Positions 7,686 through 49,808 of a stretch of DNA of 64,000 nt are shown here, piece by piece. This DNA comes from Escherichia phage V18: the sequence record NC_041937.1. One strand, 5' to 3'. The first letter of the stretch is position 1. Each line of letters opens with the position of its first letter. The notes beneath the pieces are model-generated. The model worked only from the letters and a program-made list of their open reading frames with translations. It was not told the origin of the DNA and did not search any database. Position numbers and translations under genes: made by a program.

Positions 7686-8679
7686 ACCTCCTCAGTTTTG
7701 TCAACAACTCCACCCACTGTTTCCCCAAGGCCAAGCTCTGTAGTGTAATCACCGCCTTCTATGGTGCCCTTATGATGCACCGTGATCACCTTATAGAAGC
7801 CTGTATATTGCTTGCTTTTAAGATAAATAGTGGACTCTGGGAGGATAGCTCCGTTAAGGCATGTGGTTACAGTAAGACCGACATCCTCTCTCGGGTTTTT
7901 CTTTTTCTTACGTGTGCCACCTTTCGCAGCAGCTTTAGCTTTTCGTTTTTTAGCAGGCTCGGGGTTTTTAGGGTGGGAGATCCGTGCATCCCAGACTCTG
8001 CACTTATTTCAAACACAGAGTCCTTGAACCTTTTTCCAACCTTGGTCCAATACAAAGCCCCATCCTGAACGCTAAATGTGGAGTTGGTCAGTCTTGCAAA
8101 CCTGCGGAGGTTCTCTGCAGTGTTTCCAGAGAAAGCCATAGAGTATTGCAAAGTCTGGTTTCCAAAACCAACAACCCTACCTTTTGGCAAGTTCATATCC
8201 TTCAGTAGGTCATTAAGCACAGAGTTCAGAGGTGTGCCTTTCTGATAAGATCTTGTGCTTTGGCACTTAATGATGTTCTCAGTACCATCCCCGAAGATGA
8301 ACTTAGTTTTTCTGGTCGGACCTTCCCATCTGTCTTCAACAAACTCTACAGTTCCGGAGAATATCAACTGGTTCTCATCATCATAGCCAGCTTCAAACAT
8401 AACTGCAAGGGCATCAGCCTGATGCATATCCAGATAGTTAACTGTATCGTCAGACAGGTTGTAAACTGTCACATAACCTTTGTTTGGCTCTTTGGTATTG
8501 TCCTTTTGTATGTCAAACTCTATATTGGCGGCACCAGTGTCTGAGCTAACTTCATAAACTCCGGAATCACTCTCCCCTTTCTTTTCAACAGATTTTGGGA
8601 TATTGGTTTTTGATTTACCGCCATGCTCTACCGGACGACCAAACAATAATCGCCATGTTCTACGTCTGTACTCTGCCAT
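7686..8679 (-). CDS. putative baseplate/tail protein, apparent frame change near 7930-7990
   Basis: 270 aa ORF 7867-8679 ends in an implausible basic tail; another frame stays open to 7686 and encodes a Lys/Ala-rich linker plus C-terminal domain. Confidence 0.4.
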
Positions 8680-21873: not shown

Positions 21874-23429
21874 TTAGATAAAACGCTTGAACATAGAAGG
21901 TGATGAGATTGATGGAATCACACAAGGAAGTGCTACCTCCTCTTTCTCCAGGAAATTAATCGCAGAAGCTACACAGTCGGCCCAGTCGTCTTTTCTGTTA
22001 AATGTTGATCTTTCCCCGTTGAATTTTTCAAGTTCAGTCAGAAATGCTTCCAGAGTATCAGGATGGAAACTGGATTTTACAATCCTCACCATTCCTTGTT
22101 GGGCAAGATTGGCAAAAGGTGAGAACCTTGTCAGTTTAGATTTGTTGGAAGGCATTGGGTCTTCTTCAACCCTAAACCCTTCGGCAAGCAAGGATCTGGA
22201 GGAGGTTAAGAACTCACTCTTACCTGCCTGACCGGGGTCCACAGAGAATACGATTATACAATCATCACCATCAAACTGCGCCTGTTTCCTGATGATCACA
22301 TCTCGTTCACCAGCCTTTTTACAGAACTTGCCTTCCAGACCTGTGGAATACCTCCCGTCATCCACGTTCTCAGGACAATAATCCCCGGACAGGTAATAAA
22401 AGCCGTCGCTATCTTTACTTACCTTGACACTGGCGGTAAAGTCAGGAAATTTATTACCGGAAGTTCTCTCGGTTCCTGCTTTATCCCATGCCCTGCAAGA
22501 CACTGATCCAAGGGGTACTCTATCGGCATCACGAAGGAAAGATCTTTGAAAATAGTTTGCACCCTCAGGCTTTGCAAACCAGTTACCATGGAGAAGCTGA
22601 GCTTTTTCAAGCTCGGGCAGACCTTCAAGGAAAGCAAGGTATTCTGGGTTGTCTCTTAAGCAGACAGGATTATCGAAGATTGTTGCGCCTATAAACGAGA
22701 ATGACAACGGTCTCGGCTTGATCTCTACACCCAGTCCGTTAACCGTGGTGTATTTCTCTATCAACTCTTCTTTAGAGTCTCCCCAGATAAATTCACCGTC
22801 GCGTCGGATAAAATATCTTTTCTTACCGCATTTCTCCGGATCTGGATACCCTTCATCGTCCAACCACCACCTAACCAGTTTGGCAAGCATGTGTTCTGAA
22901 TCGGGGTTACAGCTGATAACCATTCTTGATGGATACTTTGACTGAGATCTCAGACGAGACATCAGATAGTCTATCTGCTCCCATTCGAACTGCGTGCCTC
23001 ATCGAAGCAAACCAAGCAAACCATGGTATACTCAAGCCCTTGATGGTTAAGCTTATCTTGTACATACTCCATGTGGCAGTATTTTACAACAGCTCCCTTT
23101 TTGCTTCTATCCCACTTGCCAGTGTTCGGATCAAACCGTGGAAAAATGAACTTATGATCCTTCTCTCTGAACTTTGGCTTAATGTTTTCAGGCAGATCAC
23201 TATAAATAGCTACTGCTTTAGGCCATAGTCCACCCTCACCTTCCAACTGTGGGGTTGTTCTTCGGAACATAACCACAGAGCTGTGGGGGTCATCAATAAT
23301 TTTAAGTGGCATCAATTGCAAGAGGAACGACTTGCCAGACCCTGCGGCACCGCCGATTACCAAAATATCTGCATCGTTTTCGAGGATCATCTTCTGCTTT
23401 TCAGAACACGGTCCGTAAATCTTAGACAT
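21874..23429 (-). CDS. terminase large subunit, split into two frames (ATPase ORF 22971-23429, nuclease ORF 21874-22962)
   Basis: Walker A GGAAGSGKS and Walker B CLVCFDEA in N-terminal ORF; other frame continues ...EWEQIDYLMSRLRSQSKYPSRMVISCNPD after a single frame change. Confidence 0.75.
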
Positions 23430-24209: not shown

Positions 24210-24485
24210 CTAATACTTATCGAGCACTCGGTGGATGATTCTAACAGTAACTGCATTTTCATTCATCAAGTATGCATCTACATCTCTGTAAATATAAAAC
24301 TTCTGCTCACTATCAACAACACAAGCTACTGCCCCTTCAGAGTTGTCTTCAAAAAAGACCACCACTGCATCGCAGCTGAGTTCATGATATGACTCTCGAA
24401 GATTTACAGCCAGAGGATTGAAATCGTCACGAAAATCTACAGTATGGGTTGGATTTACACGCTCTACAATTTTAAGTGTATACAT
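24210..24485 (-). CDS. hypothetical protein
   Basis: 91 aa ORF between tRNA cluster and spanin genes; terminator-like structure downstream. Confidence 0.45.
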   Translation of the reverse strand: MYTLKIVERVNPTHTVDFRDDFNPLAVNLRESYHELSCDAVVVFFEDNSEGAVACVVDSEQKFYIYRDVDAYLMNENAVTVRIIHRVLDKY

Positions 24486-24531
24486 TTTAAAGGTTCCTTT
24501 TGTTTATATATGTTTAAAGTATAACTGAAAG

Positions 24532-24608
24532 TGGTCTCCACGGAGTGATTCGAACACTCGACCTCCTGATCCCAATGGTTTATCTCTACCAAGCTGAGCT
24601 ACGCGGAG
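24532..24608 (-). tRNA. tRNA-like gene, Pro(UGG)-like, with non-pairing 5' anticodon-stem strand
   Basis: Hand-folded: acceptor CTCCGCG/CGTGGAG, T-arm GAGTG-TTCGAAT-CACTC, encoded CCA, loop ATTGGGA, but AAACC cannot pair with TCAGG. Confidence 0.45.
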
Positions 24609-24619
24609 TATTTATTATT

Positions 24620-24694
24620 TGGTGGCCCTGGGTGGAATTGAACCACCGTCTGGCGATTATGAGTCGCTTGCTTGAACCTTCCAGCTACAGGGCA
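24620..24694 (-). tRNA. tRNA-Met (anticodon CAT)
   Basis: Hand-folded cloverleaf: anticodon loop CTCATAA, T-arm GGTGG-TTCAATT-CCACC, encoded CCA; position 1:72 is a T:C mismatch. Confidence 0.6.
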
Positions 24695-24770
24695 TGGTGC
24701 TGATAGCAGGACTCGAACCTGCAACCTATTGATTACAAATCAATTGCACTACCAATTGTGCTACATCAGC
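24695..24770 (-). tRNA. tRNA-Thr (anticodon TGT)
   Basis: Acceptor GCTGATG/TATCAGC, D-arm GCAC/GTGC, anticodon stem ATTGA/TCAAT with loop TTTGTAA, T-arm GCAGG-TTCGAGT-CCTGC, CCA encoded. Confidence 0.7.
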
Positions 24771-24867
24771 AAAAAGGTGCTAGGTGATGGAATCGAACCA
24801 CCTATGTATTCAACGACCAATAGATTTACAGTCTACACCGCTACCTCTACGGGATAACTCCCCAATT
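24771..24867 (-). tRNA. tRNA-like element with Tyr(GUA)-type anticodon arm; acceptor stem not resolved
   Basis: Anticodon arm GTAGA-CTGTAAA-TCTAT and T-arm GGTGG-TTCGATT-CCATC present, long variable region, but 5' and 3' ends do not pair; may be degenerate or mis-folded by me. Confidence 0.3.
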
Positions 24868-24942
24868 TGGCACCCCGTACTGGACTCGAACCAGTGTCAA
24901 CGGCTTAGAAGGCCGCTGCTTTATCCACTAAGCTAACAGGGC
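24868..24942 (-). tRNA. tRNA-Arg (anticodon TCT)
   Basis: Acceptor GCCCTGT/ACGGGGT with G:U pairs, D-arm GCTT/AAGC, anticodon stem GCGGC/GCCGT with loop CTTCTAA, T-arm ACTGG-TTCGAGT-CCAGT, CCA encoded. Confidence 0.65.
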
Positions 24943-25000
24943 ACTGGGTGGCTTTCTTTTACACCTTAGCCGCCAGAAAAGGTGGGAGACCATGTTTACA

Positions 25001-25028
25001 ATATTACACTGTTAAGCAAAGTTTGTCA
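25001..25028 (-). promoter_or_regulatory. sigma70-like promoter upstream of tRNA cluster
   Basis: Minus strand TTGACA-N16-TAATAT about 60 nt upstream of first tRNA 5' end. Confidence 0.45.
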
Positions 25029-25038
25029 AGAAAATATT

Positions 25039-25377
25039 TTAGCTATTGCTAACAGGTTGTATTTCTGTGGTAAATGGCATAAAAGGTGCTGGTTTTTCAG
25101 CCTCTTCTACTACCACCTCTTCCTCTTCACCAAACATCTCATCATATTCTTCCTGCATTCGGTCTGCCTTATCAAGAACATACTCTGCAATGCTTTGACG
25201 AATATTTTGTTTGGTTTTCGGGTCCAACATCAGCTCTCTTAAAACTTTGTGAGCTTCTGGAACCATCGCTATAAAAGATTCCTTCATATCAAGGATGTTC
25301 TTCTCTAGCTGAATGGCGTTGGACTCCTCTTTCAGAGGTCTGCCTCTACGGCGACGCTTTTTAGTTGTATCCGCCAT
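25039..25377 (-). CDS. hypothetical basic/acidic protein
   Basis: Start placed at ATG 25377 (MADTTKKRRRRGRPLKEE...) with sigma70-like promoter upstream; longer track ORF to 25497 runs into GC-rich noncoding DNA. Confidence 0.45.
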   Translation of the reverse strand: MADTTKKRRRRGRPLKEESNAIQLEKNILDMKESFIAMVPEAHKVLRELMLDPKTKQNIRQSIAEYVLDKADRMQEEYDEMFGEEEEVVVEEAEKPAPFMPFTTEIQPVSNS

Positions 25378-27457: not shown

Positions 27458-27808
27458 CTAACCAGTTGTTGACATTCGAATAACTTCTTCTGGTGGCAAA
27501 ACTTTGGAAAATGTGCATCTTTTACCTCTCCCTTGTGTGGATATTTCAACCACTCCTGCACATTCTAAAGTTTTAACGCACGCTGCTGCTTTTGTTTTCT
27601 TTATCCCAATATCTGCTGCAATTTTCCTTGTGCTGGGCGTGAAGCGTGAATTTCCTCCAAGCTTATACCAGTTGTGCAGGTAGCAGTATACGATCTTGTC
27701 ATATAAGTCAAGAACAACAACCTCACCAGTTGTGTCATTCAAAACTTTTGACATAGACAGTATTTCAAGGGGGACTTTAAGATATAGCAGCTTATCCCCA
27801 TCTTTCAT
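27458..27808 (-). CDS. small winged-helix DNA-binding protein (putative regulator or initiator)
   Basis: 116 aa; FTPSTRKIAADIGIKKTKAAACVKTLECAGVVEIS resembles a wHTH recognition region; 3' end lies about 75 bp from three palindromic repeats. Confidence 0.5.
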   Translation of the reverse strand: MKDGDKLLYLKVPLEILSMSKVLNDTTGEVVVLDLYDKIVYCYLHNWYKLGGNSRFTPSTRKIAADIGIKKTKAAACVKTLECAGVVEISTQGRGKRCTFSKVLPPEEVIRMSTTG

Positions 27809-27855: not shown

Positions 27856-28410
27856 TTACTCCCCGCTGTCAATAGCAAGACTCATTGCAATACGGTATGC
27901 CTCTTCTAATGGTAAGAGTCTCCCCCACACATCCCAACCGACATCAAACTGCCTGCCAAACAACTGCTGTGTGGTTCCGTGAGCATGACCGAACAGTTGG
28001 ACCGATCCGTGAGGCTTTCTGTTCCACTTTGCAAACTGGTAATGGCTCATACAGATCAAATTCTTGTTGTGGCGAAGCTCGTAATAATCTACAACCTCAT
28101 GACCGAACTCTTTCATAATTCTGACAGTCGTCCTTGTGTCATGGTTACCACGAACAAGAATAATATGTCCGTTCAACATATTTAGAACATCTGGGAGCAA
28201 TTTGTTAATATTCTTATCATTAGTGCACGCAATATCTCCTAAGTGAAACACAGTGTCTGCAGGTGACACAACAGAGTTCCACTTGGTGATGATCCCCGCA
28301 TTCATACTGTCAAGATTGTGATCATACTGAGATCTGTGTTTTTGACATGAGTCAAACTCCATGACCCGCTGGTGGAGAAAGTGTGTGTCGCTTGTTACAA
28401 AGTATTTCAT
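27856..28410 (-). CDS. calcineurin-like metallophosphoesterase (putative polynucleotide 3'/2',3'-phosphatase)
   Basis: Start at ATG 28410 (MKYFVTSDTHFLHQ) with GAGGA RBS; motifs DTHF, HLGDIA, RGNHD, GHAH. Confidence 0.65.
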   Translation of the reverse strand: MKYFVTSDTHFLHQRVMEFDSCQKHRSQYDHNLDSMNAGIITKWNSVVSPADTVFHLGDIACTNDKNINKLLPDVLNMLNGHIILVRGNHDTRTTVRIMKEFGHEVVDYYELRHNKNLICMSHYQFAKWNRKPHGSVQLFGHAHGTTQQLFGRQFDVGWDVWGRLLPLEEAYRIAMSLAIDSGE

Positions 28411-28417
28411 ACATTCC

Positions 28418-28828
28418 TCATTTAAGTTTAATGCAGTTTTTAAGCTGGCGTTCCATACGATCCACAACCCTGTCTGGAACATCATGAATGCTTTTACTAC
28501 CATGGCGGTTTTCAACCACGATTACGGTATAACTATACCCATGACTGATCGCCATGTCAATATATTCTTGCACATATTTTTCTTTTGTAAATGTATTACT
28601 TACCACGATACGGTCGTATCCCATACGCATCATATCTTCTACGTTATCTTTGCACCATTTTGCTGCAAGTGTTACTTTACTTGCATCCCAGTTGTAATTT
28701 CCATCATCGTCGTACCAGAACATGTCGTTCTCAAAATGTGGATACAGACCTTCTAAAGATAGCGCACTTGCCAGTGTTGATTTGCCAGACCCTGGTAGAC
28801 CACGCACGATATATAGCATTTTAGACAT
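28418..28828 (-). CDS. P-loop polynucleotide kinase-like protein
   Basis: Start at ATG 28828 (MSKMLYIVRGLPGSGKSTLA) with GGAGG RBS; resembles T4 Pnk kinase domain; stop overlaps phosphatase RBS. Confidence 0.6.
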   Translation of the reverse strand: MSKMLYIVRGLPGSGKSTLASALSLEGLYPHFENDMFWYDDDGNYNWDASKVTLAAKWCKDNVEDMMRMGYDRIVVSNTFTKEKYVQEYIDMAISHGYSYTVIVVENRHGSKSIHDVPDRVVDRMERQLKNCIKLK

Positions 28829-28856
28829 AGTAATCCTCCGTTTTAATTTCAACGAT

Positions 28857-28885
28857 AGTATACCTAACTGTTTTGTTAATTTCAA
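28857..28885 (-). promoter_or_regulatory. sigma70-like promoter for kinase/phosphatase operon
   Basis: Minus strand TTGAAA-N17-TATACT in divergent intergenic region. Confidence 0.4.
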
Positions 28886-28928
28886 GTGTTGACACTAGGT
28901 TATTTGTGTGGCAGGATAGACTGACAAA

Positions 28929-29606
28929 ATGACAAATGAGGAACGTATGATGAAGTATTTTAATGCAGACGACCTAGTTGACAAAGGTCTTGTAACCAGC
29001 AGATATTACACAGATCTTGGGTTAAAGATCTATAAATATGCCAGAAAAGTATTTTACAACAATTTATGGCATTTGTCCCCTCGTTTACTGGAGTGCCGAG
29101 GCATTGTTGTCGGTAATGAAGGAAATGTTGTGGCATGGCCCTTCACAAAAGTGTTTAACTTGGGAGAAAACTCCACCAACCTGTCTGACAATAAGCTTGT
29201 GACGGCGGTAGAGAAAAAGAACGGATTCCTTGGTGTGGTATCATCTCATAAAGGTGAACTATTGTTCTCAACAACCGGATCTCTTGATTCTCCATATTGT
29301 AACCTCGCAAAGGAAACCATCCAGGAGCAATGTGGTAATTTAGATCTTATCAAGAAGGTTATGGGCAATGAAAACATGACATTCATGTTTGAAATTTGTC
29401 ACCCTTCAGATCCGCATATTGTTCAGGAAGATCATGGCGCATATTTGATAGGTTGCAGGTATAATGATTCTGGAATAATGCTACCAGAGGCAGCTTTAGA
29501 TGGGATTGCCAAATACCTTGGTGCAAAACGTCCTCACACTGTGCGTGAAATTCCGTTCAGCTATGCAAAAGAATTGGCTGCAGAAACAAGAGGTGAAGGT
29601 ATATGA
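28929..29606 (+). CDS. putative RNA/DNA ligase-like nucleotidyltransferase
   Basis: 225 aa; candidate motif I lysine in VEKKNGFLGV (KxNG); divergent from kinase/phosphatase operon; assignment tentative. Confidence 0.45.
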   Translation: MTNEERMMKYFNADDLVDKGLVTSRYYTDLGLKIYKYARKVFYNNLWHLSPRLLECRGIVVGNEGNVVAWPFTKVFNLGENSTNLSDNKLVTAVEKKNGFLGVVSSHKGELLFSTTGSLDSPYCNLAKETIQEQCGNLDLIKKVMGNENMTFMFEICHPSDPHIVQEDHGAYLIGCRYNDSGIMLPEAALDGIAKYLGAKRPHTVREIPFSYAKELAAETRGEGI

Positions 29607-29863
29607 TTCGTAAGCCTTACTATCCTTATGATCTGCAGCTGAAGATTAAGTCTCCATACTATCTGGCACGGAAGGCCGTAATGAGGGGTAAAGCTTGGAA
29701 GATTTGGGATGATGATATCTTTAAACGTGTTGACGAAGAGTTTTACGGCATGGTAAACTTCATTCGTAGCAATTACACAGAAGATGTGTGGAACTGCCTC
29801 CTGGAGCAGGAACGCCGTGAGATACTTGACTGCTATTTCCACAACGAGGACTATATGCAATGA
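29603..29863 (+). CDS. hypothetical protein
   Basis: 86 aa ORF translationally coupled to ligase-like gene. Confidence 0.4.
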   Translation: MIRKPYYPYDLQLKIKSPYYLARKAVMRGKAWKIWDDDIFKRVDEEFYGMVNFIRSNYTEDVWNCLLEQERREILDCYFHNEDYMQ

Positions 29864-30042
29864 AGAAGTGGAAAGTTCTTTTTAATCACTCCAGAGAAAC
29901 GTCAAATTATGGGCTCCCAGACGCTATTTGGCTAAAGAATTCCTCCGAGTTTATGGATTTTATTAACGATAATAGAAAGCTCTACAGACGCGTTTCTGAG
30001 TGGCATATGGACAACGACCTTGGAGAGGTGTTCGAAGGGTAA
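29860..30042 (+). CDS. hypothetical small protein
   Basis: 60 aa ORF, start overlaps upstream stop. Confidence 0.25.
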   Translation: MKKWKVLFNHSRETSNYGLPDAIWLKNSSEFMDFINDNRKLYRRVSEWHMDNDLGEVFEG

Positions 30043-30211
30043 GACTGTTTTATTGCGCTTGGAAGAGCTATTTGTATTTGGTAAGCCTCCTGTAGTTGAC
30101 AACGTGAAGATTTTCGTGCATACTTCTAACCCATCAGCGGCTCGTAAATTCATGCTTGCGGCTGACTCGTTTAAAAAGTTTGGAATAGAGATTAAACAAA
30201 ACATCTACTGA
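30020..30211 (+). CDS. hypothetical small protein
   Basis: 63 aa ORF overlapping previous in another frame; may be a frame variant of the same gene. Confidence 0.25.
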   Translation: MERCSKGKTVLLRLEELFVFGKPPVVDNVKIFVHTSNPSAARKFMLAADSFKKFGIEIKQNIY

Positions 30212-30219
30212 GGACACTT

Positions 30220-30921
30220 ATGCGACGACTGATTGTTATCTCCGGTGCTGGTTTGAGTGCTGAATCTGGTATTCCCACTTTCCGATCTGGTAGCACTGCA
30301 ATGTGGGAGAATTTCAGCATCGATGAGGTGTGCAACATCCACACCTTTGCCAAGAACTACTATAAGGTGCATGACTTTTACAATGCACGTCGTGTAGCTT
30401 TAGGCAGTGTTGAGCCTAACCTTGCACATCTTCGGATCGCTGAGTGGTATTCCCGCTGGTCTGGTCGTGTGATCAACCTTACCACCAATGTAGATGATTT
30501 GCTGGAGCGTGCTGGTGTAAAACATGAAGATATTTTACATGTCCACGGGTATTTGCCAGAAATAGTCTATGAGGACGATGAAGGAAGTGACGTCATTAAG
30601 GACATTGGATACTCTGAGGTAGACGCAGGAAAGTATACCTGGGTTAAGCCTAATGTGGTGTTCTTCGGAGAAGTAGCTCCGAAGTATACAGACATGTATG
30701 ACCTGTTGACTTCTCTTACGAGCAATGATATGGTTATCCTTGTAGGGTGCTCCAACACAGTTATCAATTTTAACTGGGAGCATCTAGAGGAGAATGGCAT
30801 TTCACGTAGTGATATTTACCAGTATGAGGATCGCGGCATCCCAGTTTGGTTTAACGGTGCGGTTGATGCCTTCTCTGATAAAACATTCATTGAGACTGTA
30901 GAAAACTTTATGGAACTTTAA
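30220..30921 (+). CDS. Sir2-family (sirtuin-like) NAD-dependent protein
   Basis: GAGLSAESGIPTFRS Rossmann motif, NVDDL and HVHG motifs; no CxxC zinc-binding module; GAGGA RBS. Confidence 0.7.
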   Translation: MRRLIVISGAGLSAESGIPTFRSGSTAMWENFSIDEVCNIHTFAKNYYKVHDFYNARRVALGSVEPNLAHLRIAEWYSRWSGRVINLTTNVDDLLERAGVKHEDILHVHGYLPEIVYEDDEGSDVIKDIGYSEVDAGKYTWVKPNVVFFGEVAPKYTDMYDLLTSLTSNDMVILVGCSNTVINFNWEHLEENGISRSDIYQYEDRGIPVWFNGAVDAFSDKTFIETVENFMEL

Positions 30922-30934
30922 AAGGAGAACTTTA

Positions 30935-31648
30935 ATGCTGAATACTAAATTAATTGACAACCTGGAAAAACTATCCCAACCTGAAAACTACCTTTGGTCT
31001 GCCAACTGGGTGGAAAACTGGAACCGTGTGGCAGCTAAAGTGAAAAAATCATACACACCATTCGAATTACAGCTTAGCTTCATTGAGGAAGAGTTCAATG
31101 AAGTTTTGGAAGAGCTGGAGAAAGGTGATGGTGGAGATCACCTGCTAAAAGAGGCCTGCGATCTTCACGTTGTCACAAGTTATGCCGCTTATCTTGTTAA
31201 TGACAATCACGAAAAGTGGTCAAGCCTGTTTGATAATCCACAGGGTCTTAAGTTCAAGATCGGTGAGTTCTATGATACCCTGATCGCTGCGAAAAACACA
31301 CCTAAGCAAAGAGCGTCAGCTTACCGCTTAGCGGAGTTGTCAACAGCTTTGCTGTTCCAGCTTCGCGGCGATGTGTGCGGGATGATGCGTAAGGTTCTCA
31401 AATCGAATGACAGTAAGTTTGCACGGGTCAACCATCTACGGTATTCACACGGTGCCAGTGCAGATATGCCTGCTGAACAACTCATCGAGTTGGAGATTAA
31501 AGATCTTGAGCGACGCTTTGATGGTAGATATGAAGGTTTTGTTGCTAAGGAAGAGTTCTACAACGGTAATAAAGTTATCATATTCCTTGACAGTAAAGGT
31601 AAGATCATGAAGCCTTCGAGCTTCAAGGATGTAACAGAGTATATTTAA
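30935..31648 (+). CDS. putative MazG-like nucleotide pyrophosphohydrolase domain protein
   Basis: FIEEEFNEVLEELEKGD ... HLLKEACDL resembles the EExxE/D metal-binding helices of MazG-type NTP-PPases; tentative. Confidence 0.4.
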   Translation: MLNTKLIDNLEKLSQPENYLWSANWVENWNRVAAKVKKSYTPFELQLSFIEEEFNEVLEELEKGDGGDHLLKEACDLHVVTSYAAYLVNDNHEKWSSLFDNPQGLKFKIGEFYDTLIAAKNTPKQRASAYRLAELSTALLFQLRGDVCGMMRKVLKSNDSKFARVNHLRYSHGASADMPAEQLIELEIKDLERRFDGRYEGFVAKEEFYNGNKVIIFLDSKGKIMKPSSFKDVTEYI

Positions 31649-31654
31649 CAACAT

Positions 31655-31680
31655 AGCCGGGATTACCCGGCTTTACTTGT
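31655..31680 (+). terminator. terminator candidate
   Basis: AGCCGGG-ATTA-CCCGGCT hairpin then T-rich tail. Confidence 0.4.
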
Positions 31681-32020: not shown

Positions 32021-32276
32021 TCTTGCTAAACCTGTAGAAGCACACCAGTTTGACGGAAGCTCTTCATCAGTATCTGATCTGCAACGGTGGATTGATACAG
32101 GTGTGTTTACATCGTCACCTGTTCGTACCAGAGATCTTCGTCGCATGTGTGAGCTTGTCGAGCCGTTTGGTAACCTGGTCTTGTACCAGGGAGATTGGTT
32201 AGTTGACTTTATGGGAGACTGGTTGGTAATGAGTAAAGAAGAGATGTTTAACATTTTTAAGGAAGAGGCCGAGTAA
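32007..32276 (+). CDS. hypothetical protein
   Basis: 89 aa ORF coupled to ligase gene (stop overlaps ATG). Confidence 0.4.
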   Translation: MPLFNLAKPVEAHQFDGSSSSVSDLQRWIDTGVFTSSPVRTRDLRRMCELVEPFGNLVLYQGDWLVDFMGDWLVMSKEEMFNIFKEEAE

Positions 32277-33598
32277 TGCATCAGATCAAAACAACACTGT
32301 ACGCACTGAACAAAGATGGCAGCTACCAACAGTGGAAAGTATTCACGGATGGTGATAAGGTTATCGTAGAGTTTGGCAAGCTTGATGGTAAATTGCAATA
32401 CAAAGAGACGATCTGCACACCTAAGAACGTTGGTCGCGCCAATGAAACTACAGCTGAGCAACAGGCCGAGCTGGAAGCGATCAGTAAGTGGGAAAAACAG
32501 GTCCGACTCGGGTACGTGGAGAGTATGGAAGATTGTGAGCAAGGTGTTGATCTTTTACCAATGTTAGTGCATGACTACCTGAAGCGTGGCAAGGCACTTA
32601 AATTACCTTGCTGGATCTTGCGTAAGTTAGATGGCCTTCGTCTACTTGTTGTTTTCCAGAATGGTGAGCCTAAATTTATTTCCCGTGGTAATAAATCCTA
32701 CCCTATTCAAGGAAAGCTTTTGGAGCAACTTCGCTCTTTCCACCTAACCACCGGGATTAAACAGCTCGACGGAGAGCTCTATATTCATGGTCTGCCTCTG
32801 CAGAAAATAGTGTCTCTTGCTAAACGGTGGCGCACACAGGAAGAAATTCAGGCCGAGATCGATAAAGACTACGAGGCAGATAAAAAACGCCGTCAGGCTG
32901 CGATTAAGGCAGGTTTAGCAACATACAAAAACTTCAACAAGATGGATATTCCTGTTGATGTTGATCCTGTTCGTGATGATTTGCGTTACGGAGGGTACTG
33001 CAGCTACGACCTAGAGTATCATATTTTCGATATCCCTAGCGATAAGGTGTGGTGGGATCCTGAAACAGAGTCTGGTCGCTGTAAGGATCTTATGGAGGCA
33101 AACGGTGCTATTACTTCTTTGATGCTTGATCATATTAAGGTTGTTGATGCAGAGCTTGCATATACGGTTGATCGGTGCGAAGAGTCTGTTGGTATATTTA
33201 TGTCTGAAGGATATGAAGGTACCATTATGCGTAACTTCTGTGGTAAATATGAGTATGGTCAGCGAACATCTGAAGCATTGAAATGGAAAAAGTTCAACGA
33301 CGCAGAGGTGAAAGTTATTGACGTTGAGAAAGATAAGAATGATGAAGGTGTTCTTATCTGTGTTGACAAGGAAGGTGTTGTTGTTAAAATGAAGATGAAA
33401 GGCACGCACGAGGAGCGTAGCTATGACAGGATGCAGGAAATGATCGGCAAGTTTGTCACCTTCAAATATCAAGCAAGGACAGAAGACAACAACTACCAAT
33501 TCCCGGAGTGGTGGGATGCTGTATGCGTCAGAAAATCCGCAGAATATGCAAAACATGATGATTCGTTGGAAGAGTGGTTTAATCGGAGGTTTAAATGA
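32276..33598 (+). CDS. ATP-dependent DNA ligase
   Basis: 440 aa; motif I KLDGLR, motif IV EGYEGTIMR, motif V KWKKF. Confidence 0.75.
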   Translation: MHQIKTTLYALNKDGSYQQWKVFTDGDKVIVEFGKLDGKLQYKETICTPKNVGRANETTAEQQAELEAISKWEKQVRLGYVESMEDCEQGVDLLPMLVHDYLKRGKALKLPCWILRKLDGLRLLVVFQNGEPKFISRGNKSYPIQGKLLEQLRSFHLTTGIKQLDGELYIHGLPLQKIVSLAKRWRTQEEIQAEIDKDYEADKKRRQAAIKAGLATYKNFNKMDIPVDVDPVRDDLRYGGYCSYDLEYHIFDIPSDKVWWDPETESGRCKDLMEANGAITSLMLDHIKVVDAELAYTVDRCEESVGIFMSEGYEGTIMRNFCGKYEYGQRTSEALKWKKFNDAEVKVIDVEKDKNDEGVLICVDKEGVVVKMKMKGTHEERSYDRMQEMIGKFVTFKYQARTEDNNYQFPEWWDAVCVRKSAEYAKHDDSLEEWFNRRFK

Positions 33599-47689: not shown

Positions 47690-49808
47690 AAGTTGTAAAA
47701 CGGGACGGTAGAGAAGAGTTCTATAACGGAATTAAGGTGATCAAGGCGGCAGAGTCCGCCTTACTTGAGTCTGGACATACTGAAGAAGAAGCTTACCGGA
47801 TCGCCTGCGCGGTTAATGAAGTTGTTGCTAACAATCTACCAACCGACCAGTGCACGATCTCTGTAAAAAATATCCATATCCTTGTTGAAGATGCTCTTAT
47901 GGATATGGGTTTAAAATGTGCAGCCAGAGAATACATCCAGTATAGACAGACAAGAGATAATAACAGAGAGGCAGGTGGAAAACTGCTTGCAGATATTAGT
48001 GGCTTCTTGGATCGAACTTGTGATGAATTTACAAAAGAAAACGCAAATAAGCCCACTAATCATGTACACACTCATCGTGACCTGCTTGCAGGCATCCTTA
48101 GCAAACACCTTGCATCAACACAGATCCTGCCAGACCGTGTTTCAGAAGAGCACAATAAAGGCTTCATCCATGTGCATGATCTTGACTACTTGATCAGTCC
48201 GTTAACAAACTGTTGTTTGGTAAATTATCCAGATATGTTGGAAAACGGATTCAACATTGGCAACGCCCATGTCAGTAAGCCGAAGTCAATAGGGGTTGCA
48301 ACAACAATCCTTAGCCAAATCTCTAGTGCGGTAGCTAGTGCTCAATATGGTGGTCAGACTATGAGCCATATTGATCATTATCTGGCACAGTATGCTGAAG
48401 CGACCTATGAGAAGAACCTTAAATTTTGCCAGGAACATTGGTTGCCAGATGCTGAGACTGTTGCAATGCAAATGACAGATAAAGACGTGTTTGACAGCAT
48501 GCAGACGTTGCTTTATCAGATCAACACACTAACCTCGGTAAACGGTAACCCCTTTTATCACATTAAGTTTAGGTTTGGACACTTCGGTCTTTGGTAGAAT
48601 GATTACCAAAAACTACCTGAAAGTCCACAAAATGGGTCTTGGTGAAGAACGTATTACACCTGTGTTCCCTAAAGTGCTGTTCTTCCTAGAAGAGGGTGTC
48701 AACATGAACCCTGGGGATCCTAACTACGATTTGAAACGATTAGCTCTGGAATGCTGTGCAGAACGTATCTACCTGACTTCGTATCTGTACCACTAAATAG
48801 AAAAGTGACAGGCTCGACAGATGGCAAAGTAACGAGCATGGGATATGTAGAAGTTTCTTATCGAAATATAGCGACCCTGTAACAGGCGAGGAGAAATACC
48901 TTGGCAGATTTAACTTAGGCGTTGTTAGCCTTAACCTGCCAATGATTGCGGCAAAAGCTAAGACGGAAGGTGTTGATTTCTTTGCAGTTCTTGACGAATA
49001 CTTGGATCTTGCATACGAGGCTCACCTTGTAAGGGTTAATCGTCTAAAAGGAACAAAGGCGGGGCAGAACCCCATCATGTGGTGTGAAGGCGCTCTTGCT
49101 CGCCTGGATCCCGAAGAGAGTATTGATAAACTCTTCTATGACGGGTACGCTTCCATCAGTATTGGGTATATCGGTGTGTATGAAACCTGTCAGATTTTGG
49201 GTAGAGAAGGCGACAAGGCTTTAGCTCTTGGAATCCTTCAGCACATGAGAGATGCTTGTGAGCGATACAAGAAGGAAAGTAGACTAGCATTTAGCTTGTA
49301 CGGCACTCCTTCTGAGAGTCTATGCTATAAAGCTGCAACCTGTCTGGATCGTGAATATCCGGAAGTGTTGAAGCACGAGCATGAATATCTCACCAACAGT
49401 TTCCATCAGCCAGTATGGATAAATAGCTCTCCTTTTGATAAGTGGGAGTATGAGGAAGGTTTTGCTATGATCTCCTCTGGTGGCAACATCGGATACGTAG
49501 AGACACCTAACCTGAAAAACAACCTGGATGCTTTAGAGGCCCTTGTTGACTTCGGGTATAAACACATTATGTATTTTGGTATTAACCAACCTGTAGATAA
49601 ATGTCTCAAGTGTGGTTTCTCTGGTGAGTTCAGTGCAACAGCTAAAGGCTTTGTATGCCCAGAGTGTGGAAACCATGAAGAGGGAACGATCAGTGTAATT
49701 CGACGTGTGTCTGGATACCTTTCCAGTCCTAACTCCCGTCCTTACAATAAAGGTAAGCAAGCGGAAGTTATCGAGCGAGTTAAGCACTACGGAAGTTGTG
49801 GTTGCTGA
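47686..49808 (+). CDS. nrdD: anaerobic ribonucleoside-triphosphate reductase, interrupted by three frame changes
   Basis: N-terminal ATP-cone; segments resembling E. coli NrdD (ERIYPDF...KVTGS, CRSFL, RFNLGVVSLNLPMIA, glycyl-radical RVSGYL, CxxC zinc ribbon) lie in frames 1, 2, 1 and 0. Confidence 0.7.

Follow-up and report, generated by a model that had tools for sequence, protein, structure and literature searches.

A predicted RNA break-repair gene cluster in two divergent operons of Escherichia phage V18

Why Escherichia phage V18, an rV5-like Vequintavirus, should encode a P-loop kinase and a calcineurin-type phosphoesterase divergently from a ligase is the question raised by this locus, which lies in a 64,000-nucleotide stretch of DNA from sequence record NC_041937.1 (the window). 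The original prediction was that the three genes form a module that heals and seals polynucleotide ends, and every motif that it quoted is found in its place. Our computational tests (family, residues, folds, linkage) agree with this reading, as does a published analysis that predicts the same (PMC9503650). Judged from sequence, the locus probably represents a phage-encoded RNA break-repair system, most likely one for tRNA, that is laid out in two divergent operons. Family membership, catalytic residues, predicted folds, operon layout and conserved linkage are established. Our literature searches found no enzymatic or genetic data on any protein of the cluster.

The cluster is already known. 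GenBank records already carry names for its genes, and section 3.7.3 of Iyer, Burroughs, Anantharaman and Aravind 2022 (PMC9503650) describes the neighbourhood and names phage V5, so that a gene-level finding adds little. In that study it is type 2 of the sirtuin-centred, NAD+-utilising phage RNA-repair neighbourhoods, with Escherichia phage V5 and Proteus phage Mydo as prototypes and with a gene set comprising a T4-like tRNA ligase, cREC, a kinase, a sirtuin, a MazG-superfamily enzyme and a calcineurin-like phosphoesterase.

Gene content and operon layout

Six genes of the predicted break-repair cluster are contained in the interval 27856-31648 (Table 1). The kinase, phosphoesterase and ligase are indeed separate genes on two strands, but half of the module had been overlooked, as the genes for cREC, a sirtuin and a MazG-like protein follow the ligase within its operon. 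Thus, a kinase-phosphoesterase operon on the minus strand is set against a ligase-cREC-Sir2-MazG operon on the plus strand.

Table 1. Features of the predicted break-repair cluster (positions in the window)
Feature	Position	Strand	Basis
Calcineurin-type metallophosphoesterase, 184 aa, candidate RNA 3'-end healing enzyme	27856-28410	-	Pfam, PHROG 547, motifs
Stand-alone P-loop kinase, 136 aa, candidate polynucleotide 5'-OH kinase	28418-28828	-	Pfam AAA_33, PHROG 505, fold
Sigma-70-like promoter of the kinase-phosphoesterase operon (TTGAAA, 17 nt, TATACT)	28857-28885	-	Consensus scan
Rnl1-type ATP-dependent RNA ligase (predicted), 305 aa in relatives	28947 (or 28929)-29863	+	Pfam RNA_lig_T4_1, PHROG 562, BLASTP
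cREC (cyclic-phosphate-processing receiver-like) protein, 116 aa in relatives	29860-30211	+	Pfam PF20274 cREC_REC
Sirtuin (Sir2 family), 233 aa	30220-30921	+	Pfam SIR2, PHROG 2162
MazG-like nucleotide pyrophosphohydrolase candidate, 237 aa	30935-31648	+	PHROG 671
Terminator-like GC-rich hairpin, end of the ligase-cREC-Sir2-MazG operon	31655-31672	+	AGCCGGG-ATTA-CCCGGCT, then T-rich tail

At the junction of the minus-strand genes (AAA TGA GGAATGT ATG) a GAGGA Shine-Dalgarno sequence for the phosphoesterase overlaps the kinase stop codon and the spacer is 7 nt. The two genes are therefore tightly coupled without overlapping. A 219-aa TTG-initiated phosphoesterase ORF that does overlap the kinase was rejected as a mechanical extension, relatives annotating the 184-aa form that starts at an ATG (MKYFVTSDTHF).

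The promoter-like sequence ahead of the kinase matches 10 of 12 consensus positions, and PhagePromoter makes a call at the equivalent position in phage Gotham; the kinase ATG is preceded, 6 nt upstream, by a GGAGGA Shine-Dalgarno sequence. A consensus scan of the 118-nt intergenic region between kinase and ligase found no rightward promoter for the ligase operon, although a TTGACA lies there at 28889 without a good -10 hexamer. The hairpin behind the MazG-like gene has a counterpart in phage Gotham, where ARNold calls a terminator at the equivalent place. Together, the promoter-like and terminator-like sites are consistent with two divergent operons.

Two genes of the rightward operon are interrupted in V18. 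The ligase is split by a 1-nt deletion, GGG to GG at 29598, within motif IV (EGYMIRK), yielding ORFs 28929/28947-29606 and 29603-29863 in place of the single ORF of relatives. A net +1 indel around 30048-30058 divides cREC into ORFs of 60 and 63 aa. An intact cREC orthologue matches PF20274 cREC_REC with E 1.3e-14 (55 bits, cut-off 27), and the V18 fragment matches it with E 0.025. The sirtuin (Pfam SIR2 E 2.3e-27; PHROG 2162 E 3e-109) is shorter than the 253-aa protein of relatives because V18 lacks 60 nt, the region around the gap measuring 91 nt in V18 versus 151 nt in all eight relatives among the matches listed. The MazG-like protein matches PHROG 671, 'nucleotide pyrophosphohydrolase', with E 1.1e-21 and Pfam PRA-PH weakly (E 0.084); the same gene is a MazG-superfamily protein in PMC9503650.

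Family and fold of the ligase, kinase and phosphoesterase

The ligase had been considered the weakest link of the module, yet it turns out to be its best-supported member: it is an Rnl1-type nucleotidyltransferase and, from its sequence, a predicted RNA ligase with a full catalytic motif set. The intact orthologue matches Pfam RNA_lig_T4_1 over all profile positions (1-227 of 227; E 6e-15, 56.1 bits against a cut-off of 28.3), and the N-terminal V18 fragment matches it with E 5e-14 (53 bits). PHROG 562 is matched with E 1e-66 and T4 Rnl1, by BLASTP, with E 5e-10. A single-sequence search of the PDB gave nothing useful; the family profile was needed and retrieved T4 Rnl1 entries only (E 3.4e-13). 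The candidate KxNG lysine of the original prediction is K90 in EKKNG; together with E149, E217-G218 and K233/K235 it makes up nucleotidyltransferase motifs that are invariant in 32 family members and align with T4 K99, E159, E227-G228 and K240/K242. Among 12 residues that we take, from mutational studies of T4 Rnl1, to be essential (including R54, K75, F77 and K119), the ligase keeps the equivalents of 10, namely R54, K75, F77, K99, G102, E159, E227, G228, K240 and K242, and the first three of these correspond to its conserved R51, K68 and F70. It departs from T4 Rnl1 by D101N and K119T, the Thr sitting in an invariant STTG. The NCBIfam T4 RnlA equivalog TIGR02308 is not reached (39.7 bits, cut-off 242). 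With 305 aa versus 374 aa for T4 Rnl1, the alignment stops about 70 aa past motif V, and the ligase is without most of the T4 Rnl1 C-terminal domain, which is thought to give tRNA specificity.

The kinase, with its P-loop RGLPGSGKST, passes the curated cut-off of Pfam AAA_33 (E 2.4e-10) and matches PHROG 505, 'polynucleotide kinase', with E 7e-10. Here too a single-sequence PDB search gave nothing useful and a family profile was needed. With the profile the matches were a Rhizopus azygosporus kinase (9D8A), Pnkp1, PSTK, T4 Pnk and the CthPnkp kinase domain (E 1e-5 to 6e-4), the best ones thus being mostly RNA-repair or tRNA kinases (Pnkp1, PSTK, T4 Pnk, CthPnkp). The structure model (pLDDT 88) superposes on CthPnkp, T4 Pnk, PSTK and Pnkp1 with TM 0.70-0.78, best on the CthPnkp kinase domain (up to 0.78), and on shikimate, gluconate, adenylate and UMP-CMP kinases with TM 0.46-0.62. 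The likeness to the T4 Pnk kinase domain noted originally is thus borne out, polynucleotide kinases being closest by profile and by fold. All 36 family sequences keep the P-loop G10-T18 and D35. The latter is aligned to the first Asp of the Pnkp1 RDD motif and is presumably the equivalent of the T4 Pnk general base. Counting against the Pnk assignment, the kinase has W38 (F, W or Y across the family) at what we take to be the position of T4 Arg38, which binds the phosphate 3' of the acceptor nucleotide. On balance the model and profiles make this protein a candidate polynucleotide 5'-OH kinase.

Although it is a true binuclear metallophosphoesterase, the phosphoesterase is the weakest link of the module. 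The motifs DTHF, GDIA, GNHD and GHAH on which it had been recognised as calcineurin-like are present, and it exceeds the cut-offs of Pfam Metallophos_2 (28.5 bits) and Metallophos (27.8 bits); PHROG 547, 'phosphoesterase', is matched with E 5e-51. The binuclear motif series DxH, GD, GNH(D/E), H and GHxH is represented by D8/H10, G58-D59, G88-N89-H90(-D91), H123 and H142/H144, and all of 42 homologues keep the metal-binding residues D8, H10, D59, N89, H90, H123 and H144, with H142 kept in nearly all. The V18 protein is 100% identical to its orthologue in phage bov10K2. The AlphaFold2 model has a pLDDT of 93.5. The only close solved relative of the protein is aq_1665 of Aquifex aeolicus (1XM7), which the profile matches along its full length with E 1.9e-28 and the model with Foldseek E 2e-8 and TM 0.63. 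It is a cellular protein without an assigned substrate or context and for that reason conveys no functional information. Neither the CthPnkp phosphatase domain nor lambda phosphatase appeared in the PDB profile search (E <=0.01) or among the top 50 Foldseek matches. These searches rule out a 'split Pnkp' by descent, that is a phosphoesterase of the Pnkp/lambda-phosphatase clade; the comparison with the Pnkp phosphatase that had been drawn does not hold, and the protein belongs to the functionally uncharacterised aq_1665 clade instead. Its sequence makes it a candidate 2',3'-cyclic phosphodiesterase and/or 3'-phosphatase on RNA.

Conserved linkage, proposed mechanism and alternative readings

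Among the 11 contexts sampled, the kinase, phosphoesterase and an Rnl1-type ligase occur within about 3 kb of one another in five phage lineages (rV5-like, Klebsiella KP12-like L009, L015, L018 and L019). As the trio is linked in all five, in differing gene orders, the arrangement is not due to chance. In L019 the three genes form a bare operon (Metallophos, Rnl1, kinase), and in L015, L018 and L019 the trio occurs without sirtuin or cREC, so that it seems to be a separable core, to which the phosphoesterase belongs as more than an occasional addition. The kinase also adjoins Metallophos in the distant phages L005-L008, and in L007 and L016 the ligase close to the kinase is of the Rnl2 instead of the Rnl1 type. 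Counting against linkage are one kinase homologue that stands alone among structural genes and two phosphoesterase homologues with neither ligase nor kinase nearby. Unannotated neighbours in the related loci were examined for further components of the module. One of 193 aa, in L018, proved to be an HNH homing endonuclease; no informative match was obtained for several small ORFs or for a 414-aa gene located behind the kinase-Metallophos pair of L005-L008.

Substrates, reaction order and a counter-defence role are what we infer from here on. The kinase would phosphorylate the 5'-OH end of a broken RNA. The co-translated phosphoesterase would open and remove the 2',3'-cyclic phosphate, or remove a 3'-phosphate, a healing step in which the cREC protein might share or which it might perform instead. 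The short Rnl1-type ligase would then adenylylate itself on Lys90, move the AMP to the 5'-phosphate and seal the break. The sirtuin and MazG-like enzyme would provide an NAD+-linked accessory branch, which has been proposed to release a leftover 2'-phosphate in the form of ADP-ribose cyclic phosphate and to clear by-products (PMC9503650). A more far-reaching scenario, which we put forward as a tentative possibility, joins three propositions. The kinase, the aq_1665-clade phosphoesterase and the short Rnl1 would be an autonomous heal-and-seal cassette, widespread in phages, that works like bacterial Pnkp while being unrelated to it in the phosphatase and ligase parts; the phosphoesterase would represent, as its first characterised member, a new clade of RNA 2',3'-cyclic phosphodiesterases/3'-phosphatases; and in the Vequintavirinae the cassette would have acquired an NAD+-dependent branch that relies on a sirtuin, and not on a KptA/Tpt1 ADP-ribosyltransferase, to remove RNA 2'-phosphates.

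It is conceivable that the kinase and phosphoesterase instead heal DNA ends (5'-OH, 3'-phosphate) for an ATP-dependent DNA ligase in phage DNA repair or replication. DNA is a substrate of T4 Pnk and of mammalian PNKP, most contexts include a DNA ligase no more than a few kb away (at 32276-33598 in V18, and in L009, L013, L015, L016 and L018), and the phosphoesterase is weakly similar to PdeM/MPE, the DNA nuclease of ligase-associated repair clusters (NCBIfam E 2.4e-4; PDB 6NVO E 4e-3). However, DNA ligases are common in phage early regions anyway, none is found within 4 kb on either side of the L019 trio, and the most consistent partner of the kinase and phosphoesterase is an RNA ligase of the Rnl1 or Rnl2 type. 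The presence of cREC, a protein that occurs in RNA-repair contexts (PMC7824862), also argues against action on DNA ends, which we regard as very unlikely. Just as improbable is that the kinase, perhaps with the phosphoesterase and the MazG-like enzyme, acts on nucleotides or on NAD+/ADP-ribose metabolites in the service of the sirtuin. Such a role would fit the plain name 'nucleotide kinase' given to the protein in PMC9503650, the cluster that it shares with Sir2 and the MazG-like gene, and the NAPRTase and PRPP-synthetase-like neighbours in three of seven kinase contexts. However, by profile and by fold the kinase has polynucleotide or tRNA kinases as its neighbours, with nucleotide and metabolite kinases matching at the P-loop only or with lower TM, and its linkage to RNA ligases and the phosphoesterase extends to lineages without Sir2/NAD+ genes (L019, L005-L008).

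The frameshifts in the V18 ligase and cREC genes are most likely sequence errors, and that in the ligase is probably a sequencing artefact because the large terminase subunit, NrdD and PhoH, besides a 778-aa virion-region protein, are frameshifted as well. A programmed frameshift in the ligase was considered and rejected, given the continuous ORF of relatives and the comparable 1-nt indels elsewhere in V18 (terminase, NrdD, PhoH and others). That the frameshifts are real and the sealing arm a decaying set of pseudogenes seems unlikely. It is true that ligase, cREC gene and Sir2 all depart from their relatives and that the GGG-to-GG deletion recurs in an independent, about 95% identical assembly (ERR700143, L023). 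However, the homopolymer indels of that assembly also break its kinase, phosphoesterase and cREC, a viable phage could hardly bear the V18 lesions in terminase, virion-region protein, NrdD and PhoH, and the additional ligase base is present in all 12 listed of the 17 matching records of a curated phage collection (short megablast). Exact-pattern scans of IMG/VR were uninformative, with 0 matches for the frameshifted and intact forms of motif IV alike.

Implications and comparison with known repair systems

If the prediction of RNA repair is right, rV5-like phages would own a complete toolkit for reversing the cleavage of tRNA or mRNA by host abortive-infection nucleases. As these phages are common candidates for biocontrol of E. 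coli O157, the cluster would then be relevant to their host range and to the question of which defences can stop them. It also raises biochemical questions: whether an aq_1665-type phosphoesterase acts on RNA ends, whether a short Rnl1 requires a 2'-phosphate, and whether a sirtuin can serve as an RNA 2'-phosphotransferase.

In phage T4, tRNA repair by Pnk and Rnl1 counters the anticodon nuclease PrrC. The logic of a 5'-kinase, 3'-end healing and an Rnl1-type ligase, predicted for V18, would be common to both phages, and the V18 kinase has the T4 Pnk kinase fold and, by comparison with what we take to be the T4 sequence, its general-base Asp. However, the V18 kinase stands alone, whereas in T4 Pnk the kinase is joined to a HAD phosphatase in one protein. 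As its candidate phosphatase V18 has a binuclear metallophosphoesterase; that it would be of calcineurin rather than HAD type had been recognised, and the Pfam Metallophos match and motif set confirm it. The V18-type ligase differs from T4 Rnl1 in its shorter C-terminal part, as detailed above.

Bacterial Pnkp systems (Clostridium thermocellum Pnkp, Pnkp1-Rnl-Hen1) unite the same three chemistries that are predicted in V18 and likewise use a metallophosphoesterase for 3'-healing. There, one polypeptide carries what V18 distributes over separate genes on two strands, no Hen1-type methyltransferase is annotated in the V18 cluster neighbourhood, and the V18 phosphoesterase falls outside the lambda-phosphatase/Pnkp clade, just as its ligase is Rnl1-type. 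The closest match is the type 2 neighbourhood of Iyer et al. (PMC9503650), with which V18 shares both phage group and gene set: sirtuin, T4-like ligase, cREC, kinase and MazG-family enzyme, by which the type is marked with or without a calcineurin-like phosphoesterase, are all found in V18, which is thus a member of it.

The phage group and the state of the V18 record

A nucleotide search of the phage collection with the 2.9 kb around the module retrieved 118 records at 90-98% identity, nearly all of them Vequintavirus (rV5-like) E. coli myophages such as RudolfGeigy, bov10K2, slur16 and rV5 variants. Eighteen unannotated 'Campylobacter phage' records with C. jejuni as host (e.g. MG065646.1, MG065647.1) share ~97% identity with rV5-like E. 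coli phages here, a resemblance that suggests mislabelling or contamination. Relative to bov10K2, the window carries many uncompensated 1-nt indels over its 64 kb (e.g. at 7971, 11560, 15502, 17907, 22997-23005, 34608, 39684-39690, 48772-48863 and 51252), and tblastn reveals that the reading frame shifts within the large terminase subunit, four virion-region proteins (one of them of 778 aa), NrdD, PhoH and a homing endonuclease. Since a viable phage could hardly carry such frameshifts, the V18 source record (129,454 bp) looks error-prone and its gene calls are not to be trusted. In bov10K2 itself, the large subunit of anaerobic ribonucleotide reductase (L004:15664-18044 of this relative, ~window 48300-49800) is annotated as two CDS ~300 nt apart; the gap may be an intron or other intervening element.

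Candidate sealing and end-healing enzymes

The ligase had been regarded as the weakest link in the original prediction of an RNA end-healing and sealing module. Judged from its sequence, however, it is a bona fide Rnl1-type enzyme of a distinct short subfamily. In relatives it is a single ORF of 305 aa. In the window, a GGG run at 29598 is one G short, which turns motif IV from GGT GAA GGG TAT ATG ATT (G-E-G-Y-M-I) into GGT GAA GGT ATA TGA and therefore splits the gene into the two ORFs of the table, the first of whose products (225 aa) exactly matches 'hypothetical protein V18_00081'. The extra G is present in all 12 records among the matches listed (the best 12 of 17 in the phage collection). 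The identical deletion occurs in one independent contig (ERR700143, ~95% identical), which has homopolymer indels of its own that break kinase, phosphoesterase and cREC. Very probably, then, the frameshift is a recurrent homopolymer miscall and not a real allele.

Features of the module in the window
Feature	Coordinates	Strand	Remarks
Metallophosphoesterase	27856-28410	-	184 aa from MKYFVTSDTHF; DTHF, GDIA, GNHD, GHAH
Kinase	28418-28828	-	136 aa; RGLPGSGKST; Pfam AAA_33 E 2.4e-10
Ligase, N-terminal part	28929-29606	+	EKKNG; Pfam RNA_lig_T4_1 E 5e-14
Ligase, C-terminal part	29603-29863	+	Second ORF from frameshift
Sirtuin	30220-30921	+	Pfam SIR2 E about 5e-27; PHROG E 3e-109

The intact ligase covers the whole Pfam RNA_lig_T4_1 profile (E 6e-15) and matches PHROG 562, the T4 gp63 family (E 1e-66), as well as T4 Rnl1 by BLASTP (E 5e-10; comparison sequence identical to PDB 2C5U). 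In the PDB, a profile of 32 family sequences matches T4 Rnl1 entries only (E 3.4e-13, residues 48-239 against 51-250), with no match to Trl1 or RLIG1 entries. The equivalents of T4 R54, K75, F77, K99, G102, E159, E227, G228, K240 and K242 are conserved, while D101 is replaced by Asn and K119 by Thr. The C-terminal domain, which confers tRNA specificity on T4 Rnl1, is largely absent, since only ~70 residues follow motif V compared with 132 in T4. The protein falls below the NCBIfam cut-off for T4 RnlA equivalogs, and its subfamily comprises 555 homologues of ~300 aa from phages of roughly 95-150 kb.

The kinase is intact in the window and 100% identical to its bov10K2 orthologue. It is preceded by a GGAGGA ribosome-binding site and by a sigma-70-like promoter matching 10 of 12 consensus positions (TTGAAA, 17 nt, TATACT; 28885 to 28857; consensus scan), and PhagePromoter places a promoter at the equivalent spot in phage Gotham. 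Its family of stand-alone proteins of ~130 aa is very large (at least 7,989 matches at ~50% identity), with an invariant P-loop, D35, SNT motif and ENRH motif. D35 aligns with the general-base Asp, and the presumed counterpart of T4 Arg38 is aromatic. The best PDB matches of the family profile are mostly polynucleotide or tRNA kinases (E 9e-6 to 6e-4), among them a Rhizopus azygosporus kinase (9D8A), Pnkp1, PSTK, T4 Pnk and the CthPnkp kinase domain, whereas nucleotide kinases show similarity at the P-loop only. Likewise, CthPnkp, T4 Pnk, PSTK and Pnkp1 give the best superpositions with the AlphaFold2 model (TM 0.70-0.78; pLDDT of the model 88), compared with TM 0.46-0.62 for metabolite kinases. 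These profile and fold matches speak against the alternative of a nucleotide kinase with no polynucleotide activity, though they are no proof of the predicted activity.

The phosphoesterase, too, is intact and 100% identical to the bov10K2 protein. Its scores exceed the gathering cut-offs of Pfam Metallophos and Metallophos_2. The proposed translational coupling to the kinase agrees with the junction, TGA-GGAATGT-ATG, in which a GAGGA Shine-Dalgarno sequence overlaps the kinase stop codon, without gene overlap. A TTG-extended ORF of 219 aa was discarded as a by-product of mechanical ORF calling; the annotated protein of relatives has 184 aa. Across 42 homologues every ligand of the binuclear centre is invariant, and structure prediction gives a confident model (pLDDT 93.5). 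The sole close solved relative is the uncharacterised Aquifex aq_1665 (profile E 1.9e-28, TM 0.63), followed by GpdQ, YfcE, MPE nuclease, MJ0936, Mre11 and LpxH; neither lambda phosphatase nor the CthPnkp phosphatase domain is among the PDB profile matches at E <=0.01 or the top 50 Foldseek matches. Its role as a candidate RNA 3'-end healer is thus deduced from context, and it is the phosphoesterase, rather than the ligase, that is the least secure part of the model. Directly downstream, in the same direction, lies a helix-turn-helix protein of 116 aa (27458-27808, - strand; Pfam HTH_36 and DUF6945; PHROG 12838 'replication initiation protein'), kept in rV5-like phages and not seen in the other lineages examined.

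Downstream genes and linkage across lineages

The module extends beyond the original description: behind the ligase, on its strand, come three further genes. They encode a cREC protein of 116 aa (Pfam cREC_REC, a cyclic-phosphate-processing receiver domain, E 1.3e-14) with a net +1 indel near 30048-30058 in the window, a sirtuin, and a 237-aa MazG-like protein assigned to PHROG 671 'nucleotide pyrophosphohydrolase' (E 1e-21). The window sirtuin lacks 60 nt (20 aa, in frame) at 30781, just past the SIR2 domain: the stretch measures 91 nt here and 151 nt in all 8 database relatives listed (of 57 matching). The loss may be genuine or an assembly collapse. After the MazG-like gene stands a GC-rich hairpin with a T-rich tail (31655-31672), and an ARNold terminator is annotated at the equivalent place in Gotham.

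Seven independent contexts of kinase homologues were checked by phmmer with rV5-type proteins. The same phosphoesterase family lies within ~2.5 kb in five (directly adjacent in L005-L008), an RNA ligase within 5 kb in five (Rnl1-type in three, Rnl2-type in two), and NAPRTase or PRPP-synthetase-like neighbours in three. For homologues of the phosphoesterase, four contexts were also examined: L019 holds a compact operon of Metallophos, Rnl1 and kinase, L018 the same genes with an HNH endonuclease between ligase and kinase, and in the other two, more distant homologues stand alone. The trio of kinase, phosphoesterase and Rnl1-type ligase thus occurs, in differing orders, in five lineages (rV5-like, Klebsiella KP12-like, L015, L018 and L019). 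Sirtuin and cREC join it only in the two lineages that are Vequintavirinae-like, which marks the trio as the apparent conserved core, with the sirtuin, cREC and MazG-like genes as an apparent accessory branch.

The NAPRTase-like and PRPP-synthetase-like genes beside kinase or ligase (L009:1-1809 in the KP12-like phage, L013:6420-8254, L015:5799-9435), with a Macro domain gene also in L013, resemble the gene pairs by which phages reconstitute NAD+, a hint that RNA repair may be connected with NAD+ supply. In large metagenomic phage contigs (L005:7082-8326, L006:7121-8371), a conserved protein of 414-417 aa, with no Pfam or PHROG match and a NUDIX gene ~2.5 kb upstream, comes immediately after the kinase-Metallophos pair, of which it may be an overlooked partner, for example a ligase.

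Proposed pathway and comparison with known systems

From the families, conserved residues, folds, operon structure and linkage, we infer the following substrates and biological role. The kinase would phosphorylate 5'-OH ends, the metallophosphoesterase and/or cREC would resolve the 2',3'-cyclic or 3'-phosphate, and the ligase would seal the break by the usual route through lysyl-AMP. Using NAD+, the sirtuin may take off a residual 2'-phosphate, as KptA/Tpt1 do, while cREC and the MazG-like enzyme may process the by-products, a branch proposed by Iyer et al., 2022 (PMC9503650). The phage also has a tRNA gene cluster on the kinase strand, 3.5 kb downstream, which is compatible with, though no proof of, a tRNA-centred function. 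ARAGORN finds only three tRNA genes there (24470-25300, - strand): Met(CAT), Thr(TGT) and Arg(TCT). In relatives, five to six are annotated (Pro, Ile/Met, Thr, Lys, Tyr, Arg), the RudolfGeigy tRNA-Lys being unusually long (97 nt), and ~370 nt of bov10K2 are absent from the window in this stretch, which also has small indels.

The motifs and ORFs first noted for kinase, phosphoesterase and ligase are borne out by the ORF listing and Pfam, and sequence and model comparisons support the interpretation, which was incomplete. As a computational prediction the module was known before: in GenBank, genes of relatives bear the names 'RNA ligase', 'polynucleotide kinase' and 'phosphoesterase', and Iyer et al., 2022 (PMC9503650) describe the neighbourhood, with phage V5 as a prototype, and predict NAD+-utilising RNA repair for it. 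An earlier study by the same authors (PMC7824862, 2021) defined cRec and described calcineurin-like phosphatases in RNA repair of a few jumbo phages; our literature search turned up no biochemical or genetic work on the system. Membership of the trifunctional Pnkp family is ruled out because the genes are separate, the phosphoesterase belongs to a different clade, the ligase is Rnl1-type and Hen1 is not seen. By analogy, the module would work like bacterial Pnkp and like the T4 pathway of Pnk and Rnl1.
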